Shown: piece by piece, positions 61,229 to 62,603 of the stretch
How the letters are laid out: every line of letters begins with the position of its first letter
Numbering within the stretch: position 1 is the first letter of the stretch
Origin: Escherichia coli
GTDB lineage: Bacteria; Pseudomonadota; Gammaproteobacteria; Enterobacterales; Enterobacteriaceae
Assembly (NCBI RefSeq): GCF_003790525.1
Contig: NZ_CP033635.1
Reading direction: 5' to 3' (one strand)
Length of the DNA stretch: 64,000 bases
Made by a program: the position numbers and the translations under genes
Notes under the pieces: model-generated
What the model was told of the DNA's origin: nothing
Seen by the model: the letters and a program-made list of their open reading frames with translations, nothing else
Databases searched by the model: none

Positions 61229-61415
61229 GGAGGGTACTACCTTCACTTCTACCTCTGCCTCCCAAACTCCGTAAAACTCATGCACAATCACCATATTACA
61301 GTCAACCCGAACATTATGAGCTCCACTGAATTCTACTGTTCACCCCCTAAATCAAGCATAAAATGGGGGCATATTTGGGGGCCCATTGTGTTCAGTCAGT
61401 TTCAGGAGCCCCCAT

Positions 61416-62603
61416 ATGGCACTTACAGCCAGACAAGTCGAAACAGCCAAACCTAAAGACAAAGATTATAAACTCTCTGATGAACGTGGTTTATATCTGC
61501 TGGTAAAAACCACGGGAGCACGCTACTGGCGCTTTAAGTACAGGATAGCAGGAAAGGAGAAAAAACTGTCCTTCGGTGTCTATCCTGACGTCTCCCTTGC
61601 AGAAGCCAGAACCAAACGCGACGATGCAAGGAAAATTATCTCCGAGGGCGGTGATCCCGGTGAAAAGAAACGAAGGGAAAAACTCTCACAGAAAATCTCT
61701 GTCACCAACACCTTCCATGCTCTCGCAATCGAATGGCATCATCATAAATCTTTATCATGGTCTGACAGTTACGCCAGAAGCGTACTGGAAGCTCTGGATA
61801 AAGACGTTTTCCCGTATCTGAGCAACCGGAGCGTTACTGATATCCTTCCACTGGAAATGCTGGAAATACTACGTCGAATTGAAAAACGAGGCTCTCTGGA
61901 AAAACTACGCAAGGTCCGGCAATACTGCAATCAGATTTTCCGTTATGCCATAGCCACAGGACGAGCCACTGTCAATCCAGCCTCAGAACTGAGCAGCACG
62001 CTGGCGGCACCAAAAACCGCACATTTTCCCCATCTGAGAGCGGATGAACTTCCTGTTTTTCTCCGGAAGCTCGCTGACTATCACGGCAGTCCTGTCACTC
62101 GTATGGCTACAAACCTGCTGATTCTGACCGGGCTCAGAACGATTGAATTGCGACTGGCCGAATGGTCAGAAATTGATTCTAGCAACGCACTCTGGCATAT
62201 CCCTAGAGAGAGAATGAAAATGCGCCGGCCTCATATTGTTCCTCTGTCACGCCAGGTCATTTCTGTTCTGCAGGAATTACATGGTTTTACCGGACAGTAT
62301 CGCCTTATGCTACCCGGACGTTGCGATGTAAACAAACCTATGAGTGAAGGCTGCATCAATATGGTGCTCAAACGTATCGGTTACGATGGCAGGGCAACCG
62401 GTCATGGTTTTCGTCACACCATGAGTACCATTCTGCACGAACAGGGCTTTAATTCTGCCTGGATTGAAATGCAGTTAGCTCATGTGGATAAAAACTCCAT
62501 CAGGGGTACCTATAATCATGCACATTATCTCGATGGTCGCCGTAAAATGATGCAGTGGTACGCTGATTACATTGATTCTCTTATGGGAAAAACGCACAAA
62601 TGA
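61416..62603 (+). CDS. P4-family (IntA/IntB-like) tyrosine site-specific integrase
   Basis: Track ORF trimmed to the ATG at 61416 with an aggag RBS (MALTARQVETAKPKDKDYKLSDERGLYLLVKTTGARYWRFKYR...). The C-terminal catalytic region carries HGFRHT and the ..IRGTYNHAHY.. tyrosine motif. Confidence 0.9.
   Translation: MALTARQVETAKPKDKDYKLSDERGLYLLVKTTGARYWRFKYRIAGKEKKLSFGVYPDVSLAEARTKRDDARKIISEGGDPGEKKRREKLSQKISVTNTFHALAIEWHHHKSLSWSDSYARSVLEALDKDVFPYLSNRSVTDILPLEMLEILRRIEKRGSLEKLRKVRQYCNQIFRYAIATGRATVNPASELSSTLAAPKTAHFPHLRADELPVFLRKLADYHGSPVTRMATNLLILTGLRTIELRLAEWSEIDSSNALWHIPRERMKMRRPHIVPLSRQVISVLQELHGFTGQYRLMLPGRCDVNKPMSEGCINMVLKRIGYDGRATGHGFRHTMSTILHEQGFNSAWIEMQLAHVDKNSIRGTYNHAHYLDGRRKMMQWYADYIDSLMGKTHK

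Follow-up and report, generated by a model that had tools for sequence, protein, structure and literature searches.

A tRNA-Phe-type pathogenicity island in the spacer between ynjA and ynjB of Escherichia coli

Integrases of the P4/CP4 type usually lie beside the 3' end of a tRNA or transfer-messenger RNA (tmRNA) gene, and it may be asked how one of them has come to stand directly behind a protein gene, ynjA, in Escherichia coli. The locus lies near the end of a 64 000-nucleotide stretch of contig NZ_CP033635.1 (assembly GCF_003790525.1), called the window here in its full length. An earlier reading of the window made from its letters (the sequence-only reading) had offered two answers: an unusual attachment site beside a protein gene, or the relocation of an island fragment by rearrangement. 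We find that the integrase gene stands at one end of an island of up to 96 kb inserted between ynjA and ynjB, and consider it highly probable that this is a pathogenicity island of the tRNA-Phe family that now integrates site-specifically into the 9 bp spacer between these genes. What can be observed directly is the precision of the insertion, a 7 bp repeat at its ends, the homology of those ends to tRNA-Phe islands, an intact integrase gene, and the recurrence of the island in divergent chromosomal backgrounds.

Insertion into the ynjA-ynjB spacer

The left junction comprises the following features:

60680..61228, + strand: ynjA (AhpD-like/CMD family), from the list of open reading frames, the annotation of identical copies and comparison with K-12
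61221..61241, + strand: core of the left attachment site (attL), consisting of chromosomal GTTCT, the 7 bp repeat TAAGGAG (61226-61232) and the island arm GGTACTACC
61232..61239, + strand: GGGTACTA, a degenerate remnant of the 3' end of tRNA-Phe (GGGCACCA, positions 69-76), from alignment with the left ends of pheU and pheV islands
61233..61415, + strand: P' arm and integrase upstream region, with 85% nucleotide identity to the region between tRNA-Phe and the integrase gene in about 500 genomes
61416..62603, + strand: intact P4/CP4-type tyrosine integrase of 395 amino acids with an ATG start, the same coding sequence as in the RefSeq annotation of identical copies

This end of the window corresponds to the xthA-ydjX-ydjY-ydjZ-ynjA region of E. 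coli, and ynjA, the last chromosomal gene ahead of the island, has its TAA stop codon (61226-61228) within the crossover segment. At the empty site of K-12 and SMS-3-5 the gap between ynjA and ynjB measures 9 bp and reads CGTTCT TAAGGAG AGATGATG, where TAAGGAG comprises the stop codon of ynjA and the ribosome-binding site (Shine-Dalgarno sequence) of ynjB. In the carriers attL reads CGTTCT TAAGGAG GGTACTACC, the island side beginning GGTACTA with the last G of the repeat included, and the right attachment site (attR) reads TTTATTCC-TAAGGAG-AGATGATG in four strains, or TTTTATTCC TAAGGAG AGATGATG when a longer island-side stretch is given. No chromosomal bases were deleted by the insertion, and TAAGGAG was duplicated as a 7 bp direct repeat. 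The base 5' of the repeat is T in attL and in the chromosomal target (attB) and C in attR, and the base 3' of it is G in attL and A in attR and attB; since the flanking bases thus differ on either side of TAAGGAG, strand exchange was confined to these 7 bp, which is the usual overlap size for tyrosine recombinases. The sequence-only reading had proposed searching for a distal island end with a direct repeat and aligning the region with K-12 ynjA-ynjB: the former is attR at ynjB with its TAAGGAG repeat, the latter pins the insertion within the 9 bp gap, and the suspected attachment site beside a protein gene is now defined to the base as TTCT-TAAGGAG-AGATG.

The same reading had reported that no tRNA gene lies at the junction, and this is borne out: ARAGORN found no tRNA or tmRNA in 55000-64000, and Rfam gave no tRNA-like match at E ≤ 10 in 60000-64000. 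The usual P4/CP4 placement therefore does not apply here, attB being the ynjA-ynjB spacer. The segment 61100-64000 has matches of 99.8-100% identity in 29 of the 5426 complete E. coli genomes, each time straight after ynjA. When the K-12 ynjA/ynjB junction was used as a query, 5388 of 5417 genomes had it uninterrupted and the other 29 had it split, every one by this island and at the identical base; no other element occupied the site among the 5417. Inserted precisely, flanked by a direct repeat, and present in some but absent from others of near-identical chromosomes, the element has the marks of a mobile genomic island.

The integrase gene begins 187 bp past the ynjA stop codon (spacer 61229-61415), as had been read from the sequence, and its assignment to the P4 type is upheld by its Pfam architecture. 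All three expected domains were found: the N-terminal arm-binding DUF4102 (Arm-DNA-bind_3, PF13356, 1.2e-27), the central SAM-like domain (Phage_int_M, PF22022, 2.9e-28) and the C-terminal catalytic domain (Phage_integrase, PF00589, 6e-22). The protein also matches the solved CP4-like integrase domains 3jtz, 3ju0 and 2kj8. Six invariant columns of the integrase alignment make up a candidate catalytic set (R241, K268, H330-x-x-R333, H356, Y366), the catalytic roles being assigned by inspection of the sequence. With NCBIfam NF007246 (PRK09692) the integrase scores 299.7 bits, under the curated cut-off of 434 bits, and exact-protein look-ups with a longer, 405-amino-acid start gave no record. It shares its three domains, with the N-terminal DUF4102, with the phage P4 integrase and with IntA of CP4-57, but differs from these systems in that its best matches in phage genomes are about 43-46% identical and its target is neither a tRNA nor a tmRNA gene.

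One variation was seen at the right junction, in strain SCU-115, where 3 bp past attR the sequence is AGAAGATG in place of AGATGATG and the first of two adjacent ynjB ATG codons is lost.

Ancestry in the tRNA-Phe islands and a probable change of target

A copy of 61259-62582 with 85% identity lies directly after the tRNA-Phe gene pheU in about 500 genomes. The nearest relative of the integrase, P0121 (94% amino acid identity), occurs at both pheU and pheV and also in tandem arrays that follow tRNA-Phe fragments; P0002 is 89% identical, and the integrase itself forms a 90% cluster of its own, made up exclusively of E. coli sequences and taking in roughly 100 draft genomes. The likeness to the pheU/pheV islands takes in the 187 bp upstream of the integrase gene, the eptA-like and family-4 glycosyltransferase (GT4) genes next to it, the distal yeeU/cbtA-DUF4942 module and the last approximately 215 bp of the island, which are 84% and about 76% identical to the right ends of pheU islands beside cadC.

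At the left end the window has GGGTACTACCTTCACTTCTAC where P0121 islands have GGGCACCACCTTCACTTCTAC. The vestige GGGTACTA departs from the tRNA-Phe end by two C-to-T changes, and the CCTTCACTTCTAC that follows is identical to the nearest relative. The sequence-only reading saw no likeness to a tRNA 3' end anywhere in the junction; this holds for a tRNA gene but not for these few bases, a mutated relic of GGGCACCA from the attachment site of a tRNA-Phe-specific ancestor. GGGTACTA belongs to the island's own attachment site, as part of the P' arm, and is no fragment of a chromosomal tRNA; unlike the pheU/pheV island ends, the relic GGTACTA would not restore tRNA-Phe. The homology at the right end extends up to ...TTATTCC (GTTTTATTCC) and no further, and the next bases are TAAGGAG here and GAGTCCGGGCACCA in pheU islands. 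The attachment sites of the two elements (attP) can accordingly be reconstructed as GTTTTATTCC-TAAGGAG-GGTACTAC for the ynj type and GTTTTATTCC-GAGTCCG-GGCACCAC for the phe type. They differ in the central 7 bp, at five of the seven positions, and in two arm bases, so that the ynj type retains both family arms, GTTTTATTCC on the left and GGYACYAC-CTTCACTTC on the right. The pheU/pheV islands are flanked by a 19 bp direct repeat, ATTCCGAGTCCGGGCACCA, compared with 7 bp at ynj.

In nine other enterobacterial species the left-end motif always stands behind an intact 3' half of tRNA-Phe, and a tenth match, in Moellerella (L032), lies behind a partial repeat of the tRNA 3' end. No further retargeted lineage was found with this motif, the remaining 22 matches being in unrelated taxa against an estimated 35 or so expected by chance. 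Judged by these sequences the family is tRNA-Phe specific and the ynj lineage is the exception. The T-loop of the tRNA has CG at a point where pheU islands have TT on the island side, which puts the family crossover to the right of the T-loop; the ynj junction would place it more closely, at the equivalent of tRNA positions 63-69.

The integrase carries about 11 substitutions at positions conserved among the tRNA-Phe integrases (F40, F53, S193, I236, S256, E264R, F299L, A312G, S313C, H370 and E377K), of which E264R adjoins the presumed catalytic lysine. These lineage-specific changes may tune the recognition of chromosomal arms that are only weakly similar to those of attP.

From these data we propose that the island integrase would recombine attP of the ynj type with the ynjA-ynjB spacer inside TAAGGAG, duplicating the 7 bp, so that ynjA would keep its stop codon and ynjB its Shine-Dalgarno sequence on the far side; the circle junction expected from this model is ...CATCTAGTTTTATTCC TAAGGAG GGTACTACCTTCAC... 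Retargeting driven by the overlap is classical in lambda, where site-affinity (saf) mutants and secondary-site lysogens were reportedly described by Weisberg, Enquist, Foeller and Landy in 1983. There, as proposed here, a new 7 bp overlap between arms left as they were makes a tyrosine integrase choose a site with a matching overlap. By analogy, we infer a saf-like origin of the new specificity: a tRNA-Phe island would have inserted, as a rare event, at a secondary site, with both junctions resolved to the chromosomal overlap, and its excision would have yielded an attP with the new overlap, thereafter preferring ynjA/ynjB. The ynj case differs from the lambda mutants in being natural, in involving a pathogenicity island, in being apparently fixed and spread, and in its accompanying integrase substitutions. 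A more tentative reading, in which we have somewhat less than even confidence, is that a tRNA-Phe-specific P4-type system turned, recently and in nature, to an intergenic ribosome-binding site, with every step still readable in the sequence: a 7 bp overlap replaced at five of seven positions, two arm transitions and about 11 amino acid changes, and with the family crossover at tRNA positions 63-69.

Tyrosine integrases with targets in protein genes or intergenic sites are well represented by SXT at prfC, SGI1 at trmE and many lambdoid phages. Another group of integrases targets the protein gene dusA (PMC4482086). The ynj island resembles the dusA, SXT and SGI1 elements in its site specificity for a conserved locus other than a tRNA gene and in preserving the function of the flanking genes, but in those cases whole families are specialized, whereas at ynj one lineage of the tRNA-Phe family has switched and the ancestral attachment site is still legible. 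No paper in the literature that could be searched connects any of ynjA, ynjB and ydjZ with an island or an integrase, nor does the TIGER supplement list such a target. What is new is a natural lineage within the tRNA-Phe island family whose change of target is legible at single-base resolution and which has spread over several E. coli backgrounds.

The runs of G5 and C5 that the sequence-only reading had observed in the junction were located as TGGGGGC at 61364-61370 and 61376-61382 and as inverted GCCCCCA at 61408-61414, touching the start codon. They are invariant in the tRNA-Phe island relatives and are thus a family trait of the integrase upstream region rather than a peculiarity of the ynjA junction; they are candidate arm-type or autoregulatory sites for binding of the integrase. 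In the right arm of the island a conserved inverted repeat (GGGGCC-N8-GGCCCC) precedes an A-run, the motif AATTCGA is present twice, and CCCCTAAA occurs once in each attachment arm (the left copy at 61344-61351 of the window). These, too, are candidate protein-binding sites of the attachment region.

Some of the P0121-type islands lie behind another element, with ParA and DnaB-like genes, from which they are separated by a 48 bp repeat of the tRNA-Phe 3' half that starts in the anticodon loop, about 270 bp upstream of the P0121 integrase (L022, L024 and L025). These arrays are two island types in tandem, with different crossover positions in one tRNA.

Recurrence in different backgrounds and competing explanations

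The first 2760 bp of the island are 99.8-100% identical across the window and strains Ch1, SCU-115, B771, NRZ14408 and LR-31, and all 29 carrier genomes agree in every base of the integrase region. A single variant was seen in the last 200 bp of the island, and comparison of SCU-115 with NRZ14408 gives 99.93% identity for its last 6 kb. The chromosomal flanks of these strains differ by 1.6-3.4% over 7.5 kb on the left and by 2.5-4% over 6 kb on the right, with strain-specific variants setting in at a distance of 73-109 bp from attL on the one side and of 10-57 bp from attR on the other. Among the 29 carriers, about 10 score classes can be told apart for the nearest 700 bp of flank. Flanks of carriers can at the same time be nearly those of island-free strains: the right flank of B771 has two mismatches to K-12 in 6 kb, and the left flank of the window has one mismatch to SMS-3-5 in 36.9 kb, compared with 428 differing sites to the carrier Ch1. 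The window from 24300 to 61232 is 99.997% identical to SMS-3-5, and 36300-61228 is 100% identical to 23 further closed genomes, all of them free of the island. The ydjXYZ-ynjABCD cluster is split by the island in at least five chromosomal backgrounds, that of the window, the source of which is uncertain, included. In the K-12-like carriers B771 and LR-31 the annotation gives a frameshift in ydjY, which lies two genes upstream of the insertion site.

Homologous recombination would bring donor flank along with the island, and a single old insertion would not leave the island near-identical among such chromosomes, so repeated site-specific integration is the simplest explanation, and the comparison points to several independent events. 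It might instead be supposed that one accidental integration, illegitimate or at a secondary site, was followed by vertical inheritance or by recombination through homologous flanks, with no reusable attB. The rarity of the island, the complete identity of its integrase in all carriers, the many insertion sequences (ISs) that ride it and the decay of its transfer genes would all suit such a history. Yet the island varies by at most 0.2%, against 1.6-4% for the flanks over stretches of at least 6-7.5 kb to either side, with haplotypes reaching to within 10-110 bp of the junctions, and later overwriting of the flanks would need recombination tracts ending at the island edge, on both sides and in several lineages. 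A single clonal origin was rejected on this comparison, and we regard a single event in any form as unlikely.

The joining of a standard tRNA-Phe island to ynjA by a chimeric assembly or sample would also account for an integrase in this position, and one observation on the window speaks for it: its SMS-3-5-like flank type is present in none of the 29 closed carrier genomes, and the switch to Ch1-like sequence falls within a 276 bp stretch common to both types. An unsampled strain or a mixed assembly could thus be the source of the window; the conclusion that several lineages are involved is independent of the window. Identical attL and attR occur in 29 closed genomes from many laboratories, and the junction also in a draft genome and a metagenome contig, and the island end is about 15% divergent from the tRNA-Phe islands and lacks a tRNA, which makes a chimera very improbable. 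Assembly error and rearrangement were both ruled out as the origin of the junction by closed genomes that hold both junctions and the whole island. Neither of the two corresponding possibilities raised in the sequence-only reading survives, that a known element at a standard site had been misplaced next to ynjA, or that an island fragment had been relocated, the insertion being precise, with a 7 bp repeat, and the island complete and present in unrelated backgrounds. No more credible is a transposase as the agent, with TAAGGAG as its target-site duplication and the integrase as a passenger. Transposition typically leaves short duplications of 5-9 bp, and IS elements abound in the island, but each island end shows homology, for about 200 bp, with the attL or attR arm of tRNA-Phe islands that carry integrases, and this homology breaks off exactly at the 7 bp segment; the ends showed neither terminal inverted repeats nor Tn7-like genes, and the insertion base does not vary.

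A different question is which enzyme catalyses the insertions. The sequence suggests the island's own integrase, which is intact beside attL when neighbouring genes are pseudogenes, and whose substitutions, E264R and E377K among them, fit co-adaptation without proving it. A resident integrase of the pheU/pheV type might have acted in trans on the altered attP, the island's own enzyme being inactive or unchanged in specificity; the attP arms are nearly identical to those of the tRNA-Phe islands, and in lambda a change of overlap alone is said to shift site preference. On balance we think this improbable.

Several points weigh against integration by the island's own enzyme at this site, or against parts of the proposed history. 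A co-resident pheU/pheV integrase could have acted in trans, related integrases being found at other loci of the carriers (two to four places per record). TAAGGAG by itself occurs three times in the window, and the chromosomal core arms GTTCT and AGATG only weakly resemble the attP arms, a likeness that does not account for recognition of attB beyond the 7 bp identity. No excised circle with the attP junction was found in an exact-pattern scan of metagenome contigs, which gave one contig with attL only (rare excised circles would escape assembly), and the attL/attP pattern had no match in species-representative genomes. With conjugation genes reduced to pseudogenes and much of the island disrupted by ISs, its present-day self-transfer is doubtful. 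The new specificity might, alternatively to the saf-like route, have arisen by gradual divergence in an unsampled host.

Cargo, neighbouring features and consequences

Two further features follow the integrase gene within the window:

62614..62642, no strand assigned (scored on the minus strand): GC-rich, terminator-like hairpin just past the integrase stop
62669..64000, - strand: start of the decayed cargo, from the RefSeq annotation of identical DNA in strain Ch1

The cargo in the window consists of a truncated phosphoethanolamine-transferase gene and a frameshifted family-4 glycosyltransferase gene running past its end; intact counterparts of these eptA-like and GT4 genes are found downstream of pheU-island integrases. 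In Ch1 the insert measures about 96 kb and reaches ynjB, and junction coordinates give about 72-96 kb for the other carriers. Cargo of interest had been anticipated past the end of the window, and the Ch1 island does encode iha, sitABCD, aerobactin (iucABCD-iutA), an MFS transporter, sodC and a YadA-like adhesin, with the yeeU/cbtA-DUF4942 module at the far end, decayed genes of an integrative and conjugative element, and very many IS elements, by which much of the cargo is decayed. An AlpA-like excisionase gene lies inside the island.

P4-type islands are usually sought beside tRNA genes. One at ynjA/ynjB, measuring up to 96 kb and with aerobactin, Sit and Iha among its cargo, would be missed by tRNA-anchored finders, and it shows how a tRNA-dependent element can escape to a new chromosomal site. 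Between them the tRNA-Phe and ynj types offer two closely matched attachment systems, their integrases sharing 94% identity and their arms being almost the same, in which the rules of target choice are testable; if the overlap swap alone suffices, such integrases would be reprogrammable by editing 7 bp of attP. For the host, the insertion may silence the ynjBCD transporter genes by cutting them off from the operon promoter, as no sigma-70-like promoter was seen before ynjB in a scan of the right end of the island, a weak negative.

The hairpin at 62614-62642 has an 11 bp stem (CCCCCACCAAC...GTTGGTGGGGG) and is placed between the integrase gene and the convergent decayed cargo genes. Near the other end of the island, Ch1 and its relatives have an IS2 about 300 bp from the right end, in the DUF4942 gene region, which is absent there from other carriers, and the B771 island has an F4 (K88)-like fimbrial cluster close to the right end. 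In GF60 (NZ_CP172185.1) attL lies near 3.27 Mb on the plus strand and attR near 2.54 Mb on the minus strand, about 730 kb apart and in opposite orientation, which suggests a large inversion with one end within the island.
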